Positions 3,763-47,581 of a stretch of 64,000 bases of DNA are shown here, piece by piece. Source of the DNA: Treponema sp. GTDB taxonomy: Bacteria; Spirochaetota; Spirochaetia; Treponematales; Breznakiellaceae. The notes beneath the pieces were generated by a model, which did not search any database, was not told the DNA's origin, and saw only the letters and a program-made list of their open reading frames with translations. The DNA lies in assembly GCA_031279555.1 (NCBI GenBank), contig JAITIK010000005.1, positions 1,464 to 65,463 of the forward strand, given 5' to 3'. How positions within the stretch are numbered: the stretch's first letter is position 1; every line of letters begins with the position of its first letter. A program made the position numbers and the translations under genes.

Positions 3763-4830
3763 ATGAATGAACGTGCAGCGGTGTTAGGCGCGGGCGCGTG
3801 GGGAACCGCAGTTGCCAAGTCAATAGCTGACAAAGGCATTGATGTTGTTATTTGGGGGCTTGAAAGCGACGTAGTGGAAGACATAAATGAGCGGCGCATC
3901 AATTCGCGGTTCTTGCCCGATGTCGGTCTTCCCGAAACGTTGACGGCGACCACGGACCTGGCCGATGCCGCCGTCAACCGTGAATTTCTTATTTTGGCGT
4001 CGCCCTCTCTGTACCTTTTGGATACGGTGAAAAAAATTCTTACCCTCCCGTCAATTCGGGATGGGGAAACAACCATCGCCGTTATCACCAAGGGTTTTTT
4101 GGTAAGCCCCAAAGGTCCGCGGCTTATCCTTGAAATGCTGGAAGATTACCTTCCCGGTTTTTACCAGCATTCCCTTGTGTATATAGCGGGTCCGAGCCAC
4201 GCCGAGGAGGTGGGGCGCGGAAAGATCACGGGGCTTATCGCGGCGAGCGAAAACGCCAAGAATTCGATCCGTTTCAGGAATCTGCTCAAAAGCGAGCGGC
4301 TTTTGGTGTTTTCCTCCCTTGACGTCAAGGGCGTCCAAGTGGCGGCGGCGGCAAAGAACGTCATCGCCATAGCATTTGGTATGCTTGACGCGCTTAAAAC
4401 AGGCGTTGATGACGTTGAAAGCGAGATGTTTGGCGACGGCACCGCGTCTCTGCTCCTCGCCGCAGGCCTGAACGAGATACAGGCGCTTGGACATGCAATG
4501 GGATCGACCCATCCCGAAACCTTCACCTCAATTTCTGGCGTCGGCGACCTTGACGTCACCTGCCGTTCAGTCTGGGGACGGAACCGCAGATTCGGCCGGG
4601 AAATCATTGAAAAGCGTATTCTTGAGCGATTCAACGATTTAGACGATCTGATAAACCGCATCAAAGAGGTGGGATATCTGCCGGAAGGCGTCGCCGCCGC
4701 CAAACATATAAAAGTTTTAGCGGAAAAATACAGACTCAAGCTGCCGATAAGTCTGGGGATTCATCAAATTTTGAACAGGGAAATCGAACCTGCGGAATTC
4801 CTGAAAAATTTTTTGGACAGCTTGTCCTAG
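3763..4830 (+). CDS. gpsA: NAD(P)H-dependent glycerol-3-phosphate dehydrogenase
   Basis: The track ORF starts at 3613 inside a repeat element. ATG 3763 is preceded by GGAGG (3753-3757) and gives MNERAAVLGAGAWGTAVA (GxGxxG Rossmann), typical of GpsA. Confidence 0.9.
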   Translation: MNERAAVLGAGAWGTAVAKSIADKGIDVVIWGLESDVVEDINERRINSRFLPDVGLPETLTATTDLADAAVNREFLILASPSLYLLDTVKKILTLPSIRDGETTIAVITKGFLVSPKGPRLILEMLEDYLPGFYQHSLVYIAGPSHAEEVGRGKITGLIAASENAKNSIRFRNLLKSERLLVFSSLDVKGVQVAAAAKNVIAIAFGMLDALKTGVDDVESEMFGDGTASLLLAAGLNEIQALGHAMGSTHPETFTSISGVGDLDVTCRSVWGRNRRFGREIIEKRILERFNDLDDLINRIKEVGYLPEGVAAAKHIKVLAEKYRLKLPISLGIHQILNREIEPAEFLKNFLDSLS

Positions 4831-4878
4831 AACTTGTTCCATGTTTGCCCTAATCTTAAAAAAGAGGAAGCCGGGAAA

Positions 4879-6018
4879 ATGCCAGTTTATTCGTTTAACG
4901 CCTTGCTTGGTTCTTTTTTAGTTGTTGTTATTATTTGTATTGACTATCTCCTCAAATACAATACGGATGCCGTTCAAAGAGAAATCTTCATTTCTTGTTT
5001 GATTATGACGCTTCTGGCGATAACGTGCGACTTCATCCATCATATGCTGGCAGGACAAGGCGGACAAACCATACAAACCGCGCTTTATATTGTTAATACG
5101 CTGTATTATGTTTTTCAGGTCGGCATGATGTACGCGACGGTTGTTTTTCTTGACTATATCTCTTACAAGAATATGAAGCGGTTGAAAATAATCATTATAA
5201 TAGTCGCCGCTATTAACCTTGTCCATATAGCCGCGCTTTTACTCAACCTGCGGTGGGGTTTTTATTTCTTTTTTACGAATCGCAATGAATTCATGTACGG
5301 CGACAAGTATTTCATCCGTTTGTTAATAAGCTATCTTCCTTTTATTCTTAATATTATTGATCTGCTTTTATCCTATAAAAATATTTCCGTCTATCATATC
5401 AACCTGATTTTCATAATCCTTATATTGTCAAGCGCCGGCTCCACGATCAGTTTCATAGCAAATAATACGTCGTTGTTCTGGATATGCTCCGCGTCATGCC
5501 TTTTGGCTCTCTACTTTTTTATTATGCATACCGAAACGCAATTCGATGTCCTTACCGGCGTCGGCAACAGGCGCTTGTTTTACGAATTTATCGACAGGCT
5601 GAACAAGCAAAGCGGCGAACAATCATGGTCAATAGCCATGCTTGATATTGACGACTTCAGATATATCAACAGCGCGTACGGTCATACTGAGGGCGACAAT
5701 GCCCTGCGGAATGTGGCGGACACTATTAAAGGGTGCATCCGCGACTCAGATTTAGTCGTCCGTTACGGAAATGACGAATTTATTCTTGCCGTTCAATCCG
5801 AATATGACATCGAAAAACTCATAGCGCGTATTCAGCAGGCGATATACGATCAGAATGAGAAAAGCGTCCGCGCTTATAAACTGAGGCTGAGTTATGGGTA
5901 TGGCGTCTTTGTCACCCATTCAGCGCAAAACATCAATGATGTTCTTGTTCATATCGAAAAACTCATATGCAGCCAGAAAAACGCGAAGCGGAGAAACGGA
6001 GACAGGAGCGTTGAATGA
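4879..6018 (+). CDS. Multi-pass membrane protein with C-terminal GGDEF-family domain (degenerate GNDEF A-site)
   Basis: The hydrophobic N-terminal half has about 6 helices. The C-terminal part reads GVGNRRLF..MLDIDDFRYINSAYGHTEGDNALR..IRDSDLVVRYGNDEFIL. ATG 4879 follows a GAGGAAG RBS. Confidence 0.8.
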   Translation: MPVYSFNALLGSFLVVVIICIDYLLKYNTDAVQREIFISCLIMTLLAITCDFIHHMLAGQGGQTIQTALYIVNTLYYVFQVGMMYATVVFLDYISYKNMKRLKIIIIIVAAINLVHIAALLLNLRWGFYFFFTNRNEFMYGDKYFIRLLISYLPFILNIIDLLLSYKNISVYHINLIFIILILSSAGSTISFIANNTSLFWICSASCLLALYFFIMHTETQFDVLTGVGNRRLFYEFIDRLNKQSGEQSWSIAMLDIDDFRYINSAYGHTEGDNALRNVADTIKGCIRDSDLVVRYGNDEFILAVQSEYDIEKLIARIQQAIYDQNEKSVRAYKLRLSYGYGVFVTHSAQNINDVLVHIEKLICSQKNAKRRNGDRSVE

Positions 6019-19058: not shown

Positions 19059-19712
19059 ATGATCGCTAGAAATTTTGTTGTTTTTGAAGGCGGGGATGGC
19101 AGTGGCACCACGACTCAGATTGAATTGCTGCTGCGGCGGTTTGAGCGGGAAAAGGCGGACGGAACGCTTCCCCCGCTGTGGACCACACGCGAGCCGACGG
19201 ACGGCGCGATAGGCGTTCTTATACGGTCTGCGTTGCGGGGTGAGATTGCGTTGCAAGCCGGAACGCTGGCGCGTCTTTTTTCCGCAGATCGCAACGAGCA
19301 TGTTTTCGCCGAAAACGGCGTGATAGACCGTTGCAATCGCGGCGAGCTTGTGGTTTCGGACCGGTATGCGCTCTCTTCTCTGGTATATCAGGGCATTGAT
19401 TGCGGAGATGCGCTGCCGAAAACGCTCAACGAGGAGTTTCCCGCGCCGGAAACGCTTTTTTTCTTTGATATTGAACCGGAAGCCGCCCTGAAACGCATGG
19501 AAAACCGGCGGATTAAGGAAATATTCGAATATCTTGACTTTCAGGTGAAAGCGCGGGAACGGTACAAAGCGTTATTGCCTTGGTGCGAAGAAAAGGGAAC
19601 CGCGACAATCACCATAGACGCGGCGAAAACGCCGGATGCGGTCGCCGAAGATGTGTGGAAGGCATTGCAAAAGGTGAGCCTGTTCAAAGCGGCGCAACAA
19701 GCGCGGGTGTAA
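19059..19712 (+). CDS. tmk: dTMP (thymidylate) kinase
   Basis: FVVFEGGDGSGTTTQ P-loop and the REPTDG motif. ATG 19059 follows GGAGG. Confidence 0.85.
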   Translation: MIARNFVVFEGGDGSGTTTQIELLLRRFEREKADGTLPPLWTTREPTDGAIGVLIRSALRGEIALQAGTLARLFSADRNEHVFAENGVIDRCNRGELVVSDRYALSSLVYQGIDCGDALPKTLNEEFPAPETLFFFDIEPEAALKRMENRRIKEIFEYLDFQVKARERYKALLPWCEEKGTATITIDAAKTPDAVAEDVWKALQKVSLFKAAQQARV

Positions 19713-19762
19713 AACAGCGTTTTAGAACAGTTCCAAAACAACCGATATATTAAGGAAACGGT

Positions 19763-20374
19763 ATGGCGAAGAAACGTTGCGGCGCTTGTATTGTATTGGG
19801 GATTTTTCTCTTTTCCACGGGAATTTCGCGGCTCGGCGCCTATTATGTTGAGTATAAAGAACAGTACTACCGGCTTTACCACCTTCATTACGTCCAGTAC
19901 CCGGATGACACCATGGAAAATATTCACTGGCTTGAAATGGCGCTCAAAGCCGATTTCGCCAATCCGCTTTATGCCATCGCCTTGATTGAAAACGAGGTTC
20001 AATACGAAAAGTACCGCTACCTTTTTATGATGCACCTGAATTTGAAAATGATAGAACAGTACCTGTTTTTAGGAAACAAGTGGAACAAACGGTACGCCTA
20101 TTTTTACAACGCGCCGTTTAAGGAGCAGAATCTCAAGAGTCTTGAAACCGCCGAAATATGCTACCGCACGGCGCTTGTATATTGGAAAGACGCGAAGGAG
20201 TGGGCTGAAAAGGCGCAGGCGCGGAGATTCAGGTTCATTATTTTGGAGCGCGTACAGTTTTGGCAGGACGAAGCGGGTAGAATAGATCGCAAAGAGCTTG
20301 ATTACGAAAAAATCATAAACCGCGAGCTTGCCAGGATACAAAAGGCGCGGGAAGAATTTGAGAAGATGCCGTGA
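19763..20374 (+). CDS. Hypothetical protein with N-terminal signal/anchor
   Basis: 203-aa ORF. The N-terminus is hydrophobic (CIVLGIFLFSTGISRLGA) and the rest is Tyr/Lys-rich helical sequence. No family recognised. Confidence 0.55.
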   Translation: MAKKRCGACIVLGIFLFSTGISRLGAYYVEYKEQYYRLYHLHYVQYPDDTMENIHWLEMALKADFANPLYAIALIENEVQYEKYRYLFMMHLNLKMIEQYLFLGNKWNKRYAYFYNAPFKEQNLKSLETAEICYRTALVYWKDAKEWAEKAQARRFRFIILERVQFWQDEAGRIDRKELDYEKIINRELARIQKAREEFEKMP

Positions 20375-20502
20375 CGAAAAGCGTCTGCCGCACGGCGTGT
20401 TCCTGTTCACGGCTACATATATGACTGTGGGAGTGAAACGTATCGTTATGTACGGACATGTGCAGACGCGGCGCGCGATACGATAATATCATCTTTACTT
20501 TA

Positions 20503-20539
20503 TATATAAAAGAAAAACCCCGCTGAAAGGCGAGGTTTT
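20503..20539 (-). terminator. Rho-independent terminator of the 20563-21039 gene
   Basis: The minus-strand RNA reads AAAACCUCGC-CUUUCA-GCGGGGUUUU followed by UCUUUU. The one non-Watson-Crick pair is G-U on the minus strand but C-A on the plus strand, which favours minus-strand function. Confidence 0.7.
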
Positions 20540-20562
20540 AGGATTGTACATTGCGCGGCGGA

Positions 20563-21039
20563 CTACAATTTCTTTATCGTCAACGCGCTAATCTTTAATG
20601 TTATGGTACGGGTGGACGCCGCCTTGTTTTCTTTCTCCGACCCGAGGATATTGAGCATATTGGATTGATCCGCTTTGATGTCCTTGCCGTCTCCTGTCGC
20701 CGTGATTTCAAAGGTGATGTCAAAAGGAACGTCTTTTTTTATATCTTTACCAATTATAGGATACTCGGAAATAACCTTCCACGAGTAAGCGGGGGCGGCG
20801 TTGTCCACCAACACGGCTTGGAGTACTGGAATGTCTCTGTCCGACACTGCGGCAATACGAACCTGATATTTGTCCCCGGTCTTAATGGGCGCGGAAAATT
20901 GTTTTTTAAGCGAACCTTGGTTGTTGGATCCGGCCCCCCAGTCATTATACGGCAGTTTAAGCTGCGTCACTGATTGAGACCACGCTCCTACAACAACCGC
21001 AATAAAAAGAACCGTCCCTAAAAGCAAAAGCTTTTTCAT
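20563..21039 (-). CDS. Small secreted hypothetical protein
   Basis: ATG 21039 follows GGAGG. MKKLLLLGTVLFIAVVVGAWSQ is a signal peptide. The mature part looks beta-rich and matches no recognised family. Confidence 0.65.
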   Translation of the reverse strand: MKKLLLLGTVLFIAVVVGAWSQSVTQLKLPYNDWGAGSNNQGSLKKQFSAPIKTGDKYQVRIAAVSDRDIPVLQAVLVDNAAPAYSWKVISEYPIIGKDIKKDVPFDITFEITATGDGKDIKADQSNMLNILGSEKENKAASTRTITLKISALTIKKL

Positions 21040-21265
21040 ATAAAAACCTCCATTTTTCTTTGGATCGATGTTCCAAAGACCGTAAAAATATATAAGTATG
21101 GCCACGCCATACCGCCAAGCCGTCCGCCATGTTGACGGACGGATAAAGCCGGGAGAAAAAGATAGAAAGCGGGTGGAAATATGCTCCGCCTCTTCGAATC
21201 GCCGGACGGCTTGCTTGTAGAGTGATCGCTATTTTTGGGAGCGTAAGAAATTAGTTTAAGATAAT

Positions 21266-21280
21266 GGGGGGGGGGGGGGG
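21266..21280. repeat. Homopolymeric G15 tract (C15 on the minus strand)
   Basis: Counted directly: 5 G at 21266-21270 plus 10 G at 21271-21280. Confidence 0.95.
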
Positions 21281-21380
21281 TAATCCGCCAATGGCGGCGG
21301 CGCGGCTATTCAAATAGTACGTCTTTTTCATTTTTCGCTTACGCGTCTCCTTTTGAAAGGTTTTATGTTAATTAAAAATA

Positions 21381-21467
21381 TTATATCATTCTCATACGAT
21401 TGTCAAGCATGTTCTTTTCAAGATTTCTCAAAAAAAGAACCGTCCCTAAAAGCAAAAACGTCTTCAT
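21381..21467 (-). pseudogene. Truncated paralog remnant (RBS, start and signal-peptide start) of the 20563-21039 gene
   Basis: About 55 nt (21425-21480) are nearly identical to 21005-21060. The remnant translates MKTFLLLGTVLF (versus MKKLLLLGTVLF) and then diverges, stopping after 28 codons. Confidence 0.5.
21390..21416 (-). promoter_or_regulatory. Strong sigma70-type promoter candidate (extended -10)
   Basis: The minus strand reads TTGACA-atcgtatgagaa-TGATATAAT. The -35 is perfect, the extended -10 is TGnTATAAT, and the hexamer spacing is short at 15 nt. Confidence 0.5.
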
Positions 21468-21651
21468 ATAAAATCTCCATAACACTTGTTTTATGACGCT
21501 CTTTATCAGTGTCAAAAGTATATCTCTATTTTTTGAAACCGTCAACTCCTTTTTTCAAATTTTTTCGACAGCAACTTGAACTTTAAACAGCATTCTTGCC
21601 TTCTGGCGTCAGGGAGCGCGCGGAGGTGTTTTTATTTTTCTTAGCCGGTGA

Positions 21652-21996
21652 AAACATAAGGAAGGCATTGATTGGGGCATTTTATACAATCCATTTAAGG
21701 ACAAAACTCTTGGACCCGCCGCATTGGAAAAAGGAATTTCCCGCTTAATGCGGGACGATGACGTACCCAACAAAAAAGGCGTTTACGCCTATGTCTTAGA
21801 CGGCAAAGAAAAACATTTGAACATTAGGGCATTTAACGACAATATGAAAAGGGAAGCATACGAAAGACAAAAAGGCATCCGCCCGTGTGTAACAAACATT
21901 TTGAAATTCAAGATAAGACAACGCCTGAAAATTGCCAAATGTCATGTAAAAAATGCAACCGGAGAAAATCCGGGAGATAATTTTATCACAAAATAA
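21652..21996 (+). pseudogene. C-terminal fragment of a DUF262/HNH-type (GmrSD-like) protein, truncated and frameshifted
   Basis: The open frame has no plausible N-terminus: DWGILYNPFKDKTLGPAALEKGISRLMRDDDVPNKKGVYAYVLDGKEKHLNIRAFNDNMKREAYERQKGI.. A shifted frame then reads ..KHFEIQDKTTPENCQMSCKKCNRRKSGR, a tail that resembles the HNH C-terminus I remember for this family. The HNH core in between is missing. Confidence 0.5.
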
Positions 21997-22495
21997 TTTT
22001 GTCTTCTTGAAAAATACGGCTTTTATCTGATACAATGCTTCGGTAAGGACAATTTACGCGCCTATTGCATAAAAAACAGGCCTATATCATTGGAAAATGC
22101 GTCAATATTTTAGATAATGGCGCATATATCAATGCAAGCCGCTCAAATATCGCACGGAAAGGAGCGGATATGGCTAACCGTATGGATCGGATCCCGGACC
22201 AAGTGAAACTTGCCGGCTTTACAACTGTTTGGTATTGGCAAAATAAAAGGCCGTCCGTGGCGGGCGGCTTCATAACAGATTTTTGCCGCTCTGCATAACC
22301 GGCAAAGCGTAGTGTAATCCGGGATGCAAAAAGCATCGCCTAACATGCCTGTCAGCGATTCGCCTCTAGCAGGCGAATCGTGATTCCGTCTGGCTATATC
22401 CTTCCGTTGCGCTCGCCAGCCGGAACGTTATGCGGCATTTTTCTAAAAATTCTTCAAATTTGTATTTACAAAATATTATAATGCCGATATACTGC

Positions 22496-22538
22496 TATGA
22501 GGCTGTTTCAAAACCTCATGTTTTAAAACAGCCTCATA
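22496..22538. repeat. Hairpin repeat family, copy 4 (arms only)
   Basis: TATGAGGCTGTTTCAAAACCTCATGTTTTAAAACAGCCTCATA, a near-perfect palindrome. Confidence 0.7.
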
Positions 22539-22560
22539 TATTAGCAAATCTTGCCGTGAA

Positions 22561-22714
22561 GAGGCTTTCCCAAAACGCGCAGGGTGATAGTCTTGGGAAA
22601 GCGGACTCAGATTTAAGAGAGAAAAACGGGCTTTTAAGCCGTTTTTCCCAAAGCGTTTCCCATCAAACCGGAGGTTCGCCCGCTCGAATGTAGTTCGCAT
22701 TGTGGAAAATGCTC
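22561..22714 (-). repeat. Hairpin repeat family, composite form, copy 5 (opposite orientation to copy 2)
   Basis: The reverse complement aligns block by block with 3581-3735: GCGAACTAC, GGGCGAACCTCCGGTT(C/T)GATGGGAAACGCTTTGG, TTTTTCTC(C/T)TTAAATCT(A/G)AG and GCTTTCCCAA. Confidence 0.85.
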
Positions 22715-22962
22715 ATGATAGAGGGTAGATTATGAACAGTAGGCTTTTAATGGCGTCTCTGGCGTTCAGCTTGACAGTAAGAGCCTGTTGAGCTTGTGGA
22801 TTTTTGGGATACTGTGAACCTTTGGTTGGATGGCAGTTTGCGCGGCAAGAAATCGACTAACCGGCGATTTCTTGGGATTTTATGCGCGAAGCGCGACAAA
22901 CTGCTAGGATGCGTATTTGCACAAGACAATGCCAAGAAAAGGGCGGGGATGAAATAATTGCT

Positions 22963-23433
22963 ATGTCCACAAGAACAACGTCAAAAATAAATGTAATGCT
23001 ATCCTTAAGGGAATCAATCGTTAGCGTAGCGAATGCCAAAAATTTACTAACATTCTTAGTAGTATTTTCTATAACTGTTTGTATAATGGCGCAGGCTCTT
23101 TCATCTTCTACATCTTGTATAATTATTTGGGGATGGTGGGATTTGATTTTAACGTTAACTCCATGTATCATTATTTTTTGTTATCTTTTTTTTCTTGAAA
23201 AAATACCGGATAAGCATGACACTTTTTTAAATATTGTTTTTTTGGCGCTATCGATTGGTTCGGCTTTAATTTCATTTATTGTAAATATCCAGCGCTCAGG
23301 AATTCTGGGGCTGCTGTTCGCAACAGTGTCCTTTTTTACTAAAATTATTATGGTGGTTCTTGCGCCGATTATAGTGGTTTTATACATAAGCTCTTTAAGA
23401 TCCGACACGCCGGATAAACGCTCTAAGGATTGA
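22963..23433 (+). CDS. Hypothetical multi-pass membrane protein (AT-rich, probably foreign)
   Basis: 156 aa from ATG 22963 with four or five hydrophobic helices. The region is clearly more AT-rich than the neighbouring genes. The RBS is weak. Confidence 0.5.
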   Translation: MSTRTTSKINVMLSLRESIVSVANAKNLLTFLVVFSITVCIMAQALSSSTSCIIIWGWWDLILTLTPCIIIFCYLFFLEKIPDKHDTFLNIVFLALSIGSALISFIVNIQRSGILGLLFATVSFFTKIIMVVLAPIIVVLYISSLRSDTPDKRSKD

Positions 23434-23601
23434 ACAAGAGGAGACAAGAGAGCCATAATTGCGATAGTTGTTGCAATTGCGGCTTTTCTTATCGCTAACT
23501 TAATAAAGCATCCCTGCCATGAAGGGCGAGGTATTAAAGATTTCTCCTTGAAATCTTGCGTAAAACTGGGGCGGGGAATTAACCTCTTAGTGATTAAAAT
23601 T

Positions 23602-47095: not shown

Positions 47096-47124
47096 TTGAC
47101 AATTATAAAAAAAAATGATATGCT
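47096..47124 (+). promoter_or_regulatory. Sigma70-type promoter with extended -10
   Basis: TTGACA (47096-47101), a 17-nt spacer ending in TG, then TATGCT (47119-47124). Confidence 0.5.
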
Positions 47125-47146
47125 ATTCTACTAAAAAAGTACGCTA

Positions 47147-47213
47147 GAGGCTTCTTTAAAATTAATCCAAACTTACATTCGGCGAACGTAAGTTCGTGTT
47201 TTGAAAAAGGCTT
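47147..47213. repeat. Hairpin repeat family, copy 12 (degenerate)
   Basis: GAGGCTTCTTTAAAA..CATTCGGCGAACGTAAGTTCGTGTTTTGAAAAAGGCTT. The core is recognisable but the arms are weak. Confidence 0.5.
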
Positions 47214-47383
47214 AGTATTATGATCACAAAATCGCCGTCCAACAAGGCGCGTTATGAATGATCGGCATGTATGTTTGGCTTTCTCCATCCGTATGGCAAC
47301 GGGTGGTTTAGCGGCGTACTTGAGTGCGTCTATATAATTTTAGAGTCTTTGGGAAATCGTCCCAAAGGTATGGAGGAATGTCC

Positions 47384-47581
47384 ATGAAAAAATTTTGGCT
47401 TATCTGTCTTGTAGGCTTGCTGGCAATCGGTATGGGGCTCGCTGGGTGCGCAGGAAGTCCCGCGCCGACGACGGATGCGCCTTCTGAGGCAGTTGCCGCG
47501 GAAGAAACCGTTGACGAGGCTGAGGTTGCCGACGAGGCTGCCGAAGAAGAGGTTGTTGAAGCGGAAGAAGCCGCCGAGTAA
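47384..47581 (+). CDS. Small acidic lipoprotein
   Basis: MKKFWLICLVGLLAIGMGLAGC has a perfect LAGC lipobox. The mature part is Ala/Glu/Val-rich. ATG 47384 lies 8 nt after GGAGG. Confidence 0.6.
   Translation: MKKFWLICLVGLLAIGMGLAGCAGSPAPTTDAPSEAVAAEETVDEAEVADEAAEEEVVEAEEAAE

Follow-up and report, generated by a model that had tools for sequence, protein, structure and literature searches.

We analysed a 64,000-nucleotide (nt) stretch of Treponema sp. DNA (assembly GCA_031279555.1, contig JAITIK010000005.1, positions 1,464 to 65,463), called the window here, in which a run of 15 G residues lies in the predicted leader of a gene for a 158-amino-acid (aa) signal-peptide protein. Both leader and gene read on the minus strand, where the G15 is a C15 (21280-21266). 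It is the sole G/C run of 8 or more across the window, the runner-up being a C7, and arithmetic for random sequence of the same length and composition gives an expectation of ~1e-4 runs of 15 or more. Thus, the G15 is not a chance feature. The parts of the leader and its gene are as follows:

21378..21408, minus strand: cassette promoter P1, GCTTGACAATC-N10-GATATAATAT, from a promoter scan and comparison of copies
21251..21331, minus strand: leader open reading frame (uORF) of 26 codons, MKKTYYLNSRAAAIGGLPPPPPIILN and a stop, from the list of open reading frames (ORFs) and translation
21266..21280, minus strand: C15 tract (G15 on the plus strand), from the sequence; unpaired in the predicted minimum free energy (MFE) RNA fold
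21254..21265, minus strand: conserved 12-mer right after the tract, here ATTATCTTAAAC, from the alignment of copies
21203..21280, minus strand: C-rich, G-poor stretch, 78 nt from the tract onward (33 C, 7 G), a candidate Rho loading site
21036..21266, minus strand: long frame ("frame B") of 76 codons, entered via C13, C16 or C19, with a TGA that overlaps the gene's ATG
21120..21142, minus strand: hairpin 1 (CCGTCCG / CGGACGG) of a three-hairpin module; a copy at 47 kb has a G-C to A-T exchange
21085..21113, minus strand: hairpin 2 with a T-rich tail, terminator-like, from a terminator scan and folds; flanked by TTGGCG and TATATA, a possible proximal promoter
21058..21078, minus strand: hairpin 3 (CTTTGGA / TCCAAAG), followed by GGAGG at 21051-21047
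20563..21039, minus strand: gene for the 158-aa signal-peptide protein, predicted at low confidence to be all-beta

On the minus strand, the uORF opens at ATG 21331 with MKKTYYLNSRAAAIGGL, runs through the C15 and continues into ATTATCTTAAACTAA, as described in the original prediction, which had been made from the letters of the sequence. Setting the tract in silico to lengths of 12-19 C, we found that the uORF ends 2 codons past the tract with C14 or C17 and 4 codons past it with C15 or C18. With C13, C16 or C19, another 76 codons are open, to the TGA at 21038-21036, which overlaps the ATG (21039-21037) of the 158-aa protein gene as ATGA. The earlier claims that two frames stop within 5 codons of the tract and that a third is open for 76 codons up to this overlap thus hold, and its estimate of ~0.03 for the chance of a frame staying open that long was about right, since dinucleotide shuffles of the window leader gave P = 0.04 for the fixed frame and 0.12 for any of the three. 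A one-base change in the tract therefore alters the leader reading frame, as at a contingency locus; the three phases in the window give uORFs of 24, 26 and 98 codons, with like logic in relatives, and the window itself, at C15, is in a short phase, one C below the long frame. The consensus of the 12-mer, ATTGTCTTAAAG, holds a stop (TAA/TGA) in one frame, and its position 9 varies only between A and G, so that the stop is kept.

A near-consensus TTGACA promoter had also been predicted, and this site is present, at coordinates ~10 nt lower than those given (TTGACA at 21406-21401 rather than 21416). Downstream of this -35 element, TGATATAAT (21388-21380) places TATAAT 15 nt away, and the scan tool favours TAATAT (21383-21378) at 17 nt. 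The pattern GCTTGACAAYC-N10-GATATARYAT is kept in the window and the four relatives checked, and a sixth copy, L062, has one mismatch (GATATACTAT). The tract begins ~100 nt downstream of the P1 -10 element and ~170 nt upstream of a possible proximal -10.

Relatives of the 158-aa protein and a pattern search covering a single genome for each GTDB species, with a few metagenome contigs, together yielded at least 18 related copies in at least 7 Treponema metagenome-assembled genomes (MAGs). The loci are the window, L001, L062, L031, L008, L002, L009, L029, L085, L003, L073, L040, L048, L067, L046, L039, L066 and L051; the MAGs are Gx481_bin52, Cd354_bin68, Ct408_bin93, Cc175_bin75, Im510_bin3 (five copies) and Ncb351_bin59 (three), plus those of the window and L003. 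Their sample codes presumably point to termite guts. The shared layout is a sigma-70-like promoter, a short ATG-started ORF, C13-16 and ATTGTCTTAAAG, after which come ~60 nt of unstructured C-rich, G-poor RNA and then a gene-specific 3' part. Genomes hold several copies heading different genes, among them paralogs of the 158-aa protein, a 366-aa lipoprotein, a ChvE-like sugar-binding lipoprotein and a 255-aa protein of unknown function. Searches of the literature on phase variation, Treponema, homopolymer tracts, leader ORFs and Rho returned no description of such a cassette, and we found none of this combination of promoter, short ORF and poly-C, which appears to be previously undescribed.

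Three close relatives of the 158-aa protein were found, each from a Treponema MAG. That at L001 (79% identical) has the same leader with C15; its leader ATG opens directly into the long frame, which a gene caller had annotated as a 125-aa gene ending in the same ATGA. L029, too, is in the long phase, and the long frame there is likewise a called gene. At L002 the 158-aa gene has no leader, and a lipoprotein gene just upstream has one, with C13. The tract of L003/L004 is C5AC10. Several contigs break within ~100 nt of the tract, as expected of a multi-copy repeat.

Copies of the window type share the P1 pattern, AAAACTTTCAAAAGGAG, a uORF start of ATGAAARAG..TAYTAT.TGAATAGCCGC, the tract, and, after it, (AT/GT)ATTGTCTTRAAG...TTTTTACAC..AAAGAATAACAATCACTATACAAGCAAGCCG, followed by a variable GC-rich segment and the gene-specific 3' part. 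The uORF ATG and the MKK.YY.N start are kept in 8 of the 9 window-type copies. In the Im510 and Ncb351 types, the promoters and uORF N-termini are unrelated to those of the window type, and only the tract, ATTGTCTTAAAG and a few bases beyond are shared; Im510 uORF N-termini resemble signal peptides (e.g., MNKSRSINILVFYLSSGAALSVITGAQD). Despite the unrelated N-terminal sequences, an ATG-started ORF enters the tract in all three subfamilies; in the window type, where Shine-Dalgarno spacing is poor, its translation is predicted from this ORF. A last scan that included the uORF motif found no short-tract copies.

The tract itself is strikingly pure. It is uninterrupted in 16 of 18 copies (C13 in one, C14 in three, C15 in nine and C16 in three), and the only two interrupted tracts are C8AC6 and C5AC10. 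This amounts to two substitutions in ~270 tract positions, compared with 60-92% identity for the flanking leader segments, and indicates that the homopolymer as such is being kept. Within the tract, third codon positions are no less pure than first and second ones, and the need to encode proline is therefore not enough to account for the purity; CCGCCACCTCCGCCA, for instance, is a mixed proline-codon sequence for the peptide of C15 that is neither a homopolymer nor poly-C.

Tract length differs among close relatives while the flanks are unchanged, which is the behaviour of contingency loci. The comparison of lengths between relatives proposed with the original prediction revealed one-base differences among both orthologous and paralogous copies. 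The three Ncb351 paralogs, whose flanks are near-identical, have C14, C15 and C16, and the orthologous sugar-binding-protein locus has C14 (Cd354), C15 (Ct408), C16 (Gx481) and C14 (Cc175), giving three phases. All three reading phases are represented among the copies, and the eight window-type copies comprise two in the long phase, four one C short (the window included) and two one C long. At the sugar-binding-protein locus of L086 (1-114; JGI 3300042612), the uORF, poly-C and variable segment are cleanly missing, and the cassette promoter and 5' untranslated region (UTR) run straight into the gene-proximal part. In two species whose sugar-binding-protein genes are 88-90% identical, an ordinary promoter takes the place of the cassette.

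The RNA downstream of the tract has its own conserved character. Over the 78 nt from the tract, C makes up 33-44% and G 4-14% in 10 of 10 copies examined, and, when the minus strand of the 64-kb stretch was scanned, a C-minus-G excess of at least 20 was found in only 21 of ~6,400 windows. None of the seven leaders folded had the tract paired in its MFE structure. Closer to the gene lies a module with the order hairpin, TTTAGCGG, hairpin, TATATAC, hairpin, GGAGG (21058-21142, minus strand, in the window), which, with covarying stems, heads several secreted-protein and lipoprotein genes (L001, L002, L003, L004 and L008). Hairpin 2 shows compensatory changes between copies at four pairs; it is placed exactly in the spacer of the possible proximal promoter, and this terminator-like hairpin with its T-run (21113-21085) falls inside the long frame. 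A search of Rfam with positions 19500-23500 at E<=1 gave no family match, only two sub-threshold chance hits. This three-hairpin 5' UTR module with covarying stems and no Rfam match stands whatever the mechanism of the tract. The window contains another copy of it, which served as a control:

47096..47383, plus strand: second leader, with a P1-like promoter and the three-hairpin module, no uORF and no poly-C

This second leader precedes a gene for a 65-aa acidic lipoprotein (47384-47581), and its module copy occupies 47265-47383. Its promoter (47096-47124, plus strand; TTGACA-17-TATGCT, TG-extended) is near-consensus and has an A9 in the spacer (47107-47115). A homopolymer in a promoter spacer is a classic layout of phase variation.

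Three other roles for the leader sequences were considered and rejected. An antiterminator, formed by pairing between the GC-rich uORF segment and the 5' arm of hairpin 2, appears in the MFE fold of the window and is not conserved in six other copies. A promoter on the reverse strand (AAGACA with a 17-nt spacer of AT + G15) would lack a -10-like hexamer past the G run in any subfamily, and the ATG of a reverse-strand ORF beginning ATG-GGG is not conserved (ACG in L001).

The explanation we favour, to which we give slightly less than even credence, is that slipped-strand changes in the tract shift the stop of the leader ORF and that leader translation then gates the transcription or translation reaching the gene. 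With a similar reserve, the G15 can be regarded as the putative hypermutable core of a portable 5' regulatory cassette. Slipped-strand mispairing would alter the tract by one base at high frequency, and the stop of the leader ORF would move between a position just behind the tract and one far downstream, at or near the gene start. An early ribosome stop would leave the C-rich leader naked, and Rho would then end transcription ahead of the gene; in the short phase of the window, a second stop signal may come from hairpin 2 and its U-run. Ribosomes in the long frame would cover the RNA and melt the hairpins, allowing the gene to be transcribed and its start to be opened.

Parts of this proposal are safe: a C15 run slips in replication, such slippage moves the leader ORF stop, and the homopolymer as such is being maintained. 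Unstructured C-rich RNA is the textbook preference of Rho, and such RNA, poor in G, is what we found beside the uORF stop. Previous work has shown that most T. pallidum tracts of at least 8 vary in length and that G/C homopolymers as long as this one are hypermutable (PMC7864442), and that uORF translation can gate Rho-dependent termination (PMC12360218). The wider proposal, of a portable switch cassette (promoter, proline-run ORF and poly-C Rho-loading site) that recombination would carry from one surface-protein or transporter gene of gut Treponema to the 5' end of another, and that would confer heritable, stochastic on/off expression, is one that we consider doubtful. If it is true, the uniform length of 15 marks a selected resting state.

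Several observations weigh against the gating proposal. The long phase is found in only two of the eight window-type copies. In Im510_bin3 all five copies are C15, in the same phase, with a uORF ending in PPPPPLS and a stop, as in one Ncb351 copy, and the tight clustering at 15 looks more like selection for one length than free switching. At two loci assembled independently (JGI and Logan), tract lengths agree exactly. The GGAG at 21350-21347 sits 15 nt from the uORF ATG, too distant for a good Shine-Dalgarno sequence, and a candidate proximal promoter (TTAGCG-17/18-TATATA) may drive the gene without the leader. The dependence on Rho is pure inference.

The long frame adds further points on the same side. 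A profile of six in-silico long-phase products, searched against 5.8 billion proteins, found only two ORFs already called, both in the cassette family, and so the homologs by which the original prediction would have tested this frame did not emerge. Nor did a coding signature: substitutions are spread evenly over the three codon positions, in the long frame as in the uORF N-terminus, which indicates that no protein is conserved. The frame has stops in two copies (L009 and L085), and in the Im510 and Ncb351 subfamilies another frame is the long one. Where the middle segments are non-homologous, shuffles are stop-free in 7-80% of cases, and the openness is near expectation.

Nevertheless, the arrangement of frames recurs. 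Past the tract, one frame stops within 2-5 codons in every copy examined and a second does so in five of the eight window-type copies, while the third runs for 58-130 codons. Per-copy shuffle P values for the openness of the long frame were 0.003-0.07. The argument that this frame is open in all copies, with a product of P values of ~1e-11, was discarded, because it collapsed when homologous modules were left out and the control leader was taken into account. That leader, at 47.3 kb, has neither tract nor uORF, and its ATGA frame is open from -125 to +1. The ATGA overlap, present in the window, L001, L008 and L002, arises because the gene start is written ATGAAA and is part of the gene-proximal module. 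In the four three-hairpin-type copies, the middle segments measure 53, 146, 152 and 74 nt, and each preserves the long frame (P ~0.04). We conclude that most of its openness is inherited or compositional and that the remainder is only weakly beyond chance. It is suggestive only that the long frame, if it matters, matters by being translated and not by its product.

The main rival to the gating proposal is an attenuator with a uORF of fixed length, which we regard as possible, though on the unlikely side. Here, a ribosome would pause on the four to five prolines, in dependence on EF-P or proline tRNA, and stop 2-4 codons on; the paused or terminating ribosome would mask the Rho site, and expression would follow translational capacity or proline supply. 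Fifteen would then be the selected length, and one-base differences between genomes tolerated noise. The tight mode at 15 fits this well, as do the six C15 copies that, with unrelated N-termini, all end in PPPPPLS and a stop, the uORF in every subfamily, the unpaired tract in a stretch with C in excess of G, and the 12-mer whose A/G exchange at position 9 retains the stop. Proline-codon leaders occur at Salmonella mgtA and mgtCBR. Further precedents are tnaC, speFL and cruR (PMC12360218). However, the coding of proline needs no pure C, and third positions should have drifted given 8-40% divergence of the flanks, which they have not; the phases of window-type orthologs differ (A, B, C and C); and C15 cannot avoid replication slippage. 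Folds of the seven leaders gave no alternative hairpins or long-range pairing conserved across copies, which also counts against it. The attenuator thus explains the uniform length better than the slippage switch does, and the purity and scatter of phases worse. As an unlikely alternative, the leader could descend from the start of a secreted-protein gene, with signal peptide and proline linker, that was once phase-variable and has since decayed; copied in front of other genes by recombination, it would still supply a promoter, its tract and frames now idle. The signal-peptide-like uORFs of the Im510 type would be explained in this way, and so would the want of constraint at the amino-acid level, the deletion allele L086 without uORF and tract, and the many neighbours that are gene fragments. 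An idle homopolymer should shrink or be interrupted, however, and this one is pure over 13-16 nt in 16 of 18 copies, from genomes in which the flanks are up to ~30-40% divergent; moreover, the 12-mer and the C-over-G bias are kept across subfamilies that share nothing else.

An effect at the level of DNA seems still less probable. In this explanation, the G15 would form a G-quadruplex (G4) or another non-B structure in the template strand, block or pause RNA polymerase or nick the DNA, and stimulate recombination, which would account for the shuffling of the cassette and neighbouring gene pieces, as has been proposed for pilE and vls; G4-linked recombination has precedents (PMC3585125, PMC4412290). 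By arithmetic, at least 15 bases are needed for three tetrads joined by one-base loops, the leader has the G run in its template strand, and mosaic cassettes lie beside truncated paralogs and junctions (the 42-nt repeat in the window, a gene fragment at L009 and kinase fusions at L002/L003). Yet 4 of the 16 pure tracts are shorter than 15, none varies at the loop positions (4, 8 and 12) where G4 formation would permit it, and the two interruptions lie off those positions. No arrays of silent donor cassettes were seen, and a 12-nt microhomology away from the tract explains the junction in the window. Finally, an error of sequencing or assembly in the run or its exact length, named in the original prediction as the trivial alternative, is very improbable. 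Long homopolymers are error-prone, and a true C16 would place the window copy in the long phase; nevertheless, ~18 copies from independent samples and assemblies show the tract beside the same neighbours, and contigs of two assemblers (JGI and Logan) have equal lengths at two loci. A pure artefact can thus be discarded.

Phase variation is known mostly from pathogens and usually acts on a protein gene or its promoter. At the ORF poly-G/C loci of Campylobacter, Neisseria and Helicobacter (PMC6321876, PMC5084427, PMC2823697), as here, an ORF contains a long, pure G/C run close to its 5' end, a change of one base shifts the frame, the other frames stop early, and the loci exist in multiple copies associated with surface or secreted proteins. 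The tract described here differs in that it hits a short, non-conserved leader ORF and not a protein gene, which it could thus affect only indirectly; it is also 13-16 nt long and unusually uniform, compared with a typical 8-13, and its hosts are gut symbionts, not pathogens. T. pallidum offers a comparison within the genus, with poly-G upstream of the envelope-protein genes tpr, tp0126 and tprL (PMC7864442). Those tracts lie in the promoter and change initiation, whereas this one, poly-C on the coding strand, lies within a leader predicted to be translated, ~100 nt downstream of the -10 element and thus neither in the promoter nor at the transcription start; for this reason, the parallel to tpr genes drawn in the original prediction does not hold as regards position. 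At Moraxella catarrhalis uspA1 (PMC7302503), a G(n) homopolymer likewise separates promoter and start codon, and its length alters the level of downstream mRNA; that system, however, has no known leader ORF, its tract is 29 bp away from the ORF, and its expression varies in grades, in contrast to the three-phase logic of the leader.

The tnaC, speFL and cruR leaders (PMC12360218) resemble it in that a short leader ORF adjoins a C-rich Rho site and the position of the ribosome decides read-through, but they sense a ligand via a conserved arrest peptide, whereas here the N-terminal peptide is unconserved and the proposed input is a heritable change of frame. Such a heritable change in leader DNA decides the Rho stop at E. 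coli fim and C. difficile flgB (PMC5386303, PMC12360218), by site-specific inversion rather than the homopolymer slippage proposed here; a repeat search of the window found no inverted repeats flanking the leader. Leaders of the mgtL/mgtP type combine consecutive proline codons with conserved alternative stem-loops; proline codons are present in the leaders studied here, and no long-range pairing is kept across their copies. In Mycoplasma hyorhinis, the vlp lipoprotein genes have a conserved 5' region with poly-A in the promoter spacer. A shared 5' cassette with a homopolymer thus heads lipoprotein genes there as well, and the second leader of the window has its A9 spacer; the vlp tract, however, is in the promoter spacer, and the poly-C is in a leader predicted to be transcribed and translated.

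What appears to be new, judging from the sequences compared, is the siting of a contingency-type repeat in the non-conserved leader ORF of a portable cassette. If the gating proposal is true, this would be a modular leader able to make any following gene switchable, in uncultured gut symbionts, and one small element would link homopolymer slippage, leader-ORF translation and Rho or terminator attenuation. Its signature (promoter, short ORF, C13-16 and ATTGTCTTAAAG) would then serve to find switchable genes in metagenomes.

The 158-aa protein gene carries its own Shine-Dalgarno sequence, GGAGG at 7 nt (21051-21047). Structure prediction for the protein gave an all-beta model with a mean predicted local distance difference test score of 52, too poor for a fold search, and Pfam had no match for the protein, its neighbours or the long-frame product. 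Exact-protein look-ups found no record matching the window's own genes, and the tract flanks have no exact DNA match in GTDB genomes. Three further features flank the leader and gene:

20505..20539, minus strand: intrinsic-terminator-like hairpin at the gene end, from a terminator scan
21432..21473, minus strand: remnant of an upstream paralog, comprising a ribosome-binding site, an ATG (21467-21465) and 13 signal-peptide codons
21517..21545, minus strand: promoter-like site TTGACG-17-TATACT of the truncated upstream paralog, before the remnant ORF (MKTFLLLGTVLF...)

The remnant (21432-21473) matches 21004-21045 as a direct repeat over 42 nt (93%) and is probably the leftover of a deleted upstream paralog. 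It is joined to the leader at the 12-nt microhomology ACGGTTCTTTTT, and copies of the leader share CGGTTCATTTTTTTGAAAAA as their 5' edge.

Other irregular copies were observed. At L002 (4214-4445) and L003 (746-890), the poly-C leader continues in frame into fragments from the N-terminus of an FGGY-type sugar kinase (GIDMGTQSVKMA...); these fusions, in two MAG contexts, are another sign of recombination at cassettes. At L031 (3090-3241, Gx481_bin52), the same promoter and uORF start lead to a C16 amid G-rich runs (GGGGGGCGGGGCG-C16-GCCCC) without the 12-mer, and the contig ends 50 nt further on. Downstream of the poly-C cassette at L039 (~4770-5000, Ncb351_bin59), about ten tandem 21-nt units (GGACTTAGGCAAATCCAACTC) lie in a decayed gene.

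Matches of the pattern in non-Treponema genomes were mostly C8-10 in AT-rich, low-complexity sequence and were judged to be chance, as were a few longer ones (C13, C14 and C19) with unrelated flanks. One phage lineage also matched, with C8, C9 or C10 followed by GATTGTCTTGAAG; its flanks are unrelated, and its likeness to the Treponema 12-mer was probably forced by the pattern. In these IMG/VR viral contigs (L098-L109), AAGGAGATTATA-C8/9/10-GATTGTCTTGAAG has near-identical flanks, and, read on the opposite strand, the G run is immediately followed by a perfect TATAAT. The differences in run length among the near-identical contigs look like phase variation of the promoter type. Within the window, the stretch of ~21600-22900, which has no convincing genes, contains a 19-nt inverted repeat (22496-22538; TATGAGGCTGTTTCAAAAC / GTTTTAAAACAGCCTCATA) with 95% complementarity and a 5-nt loop.

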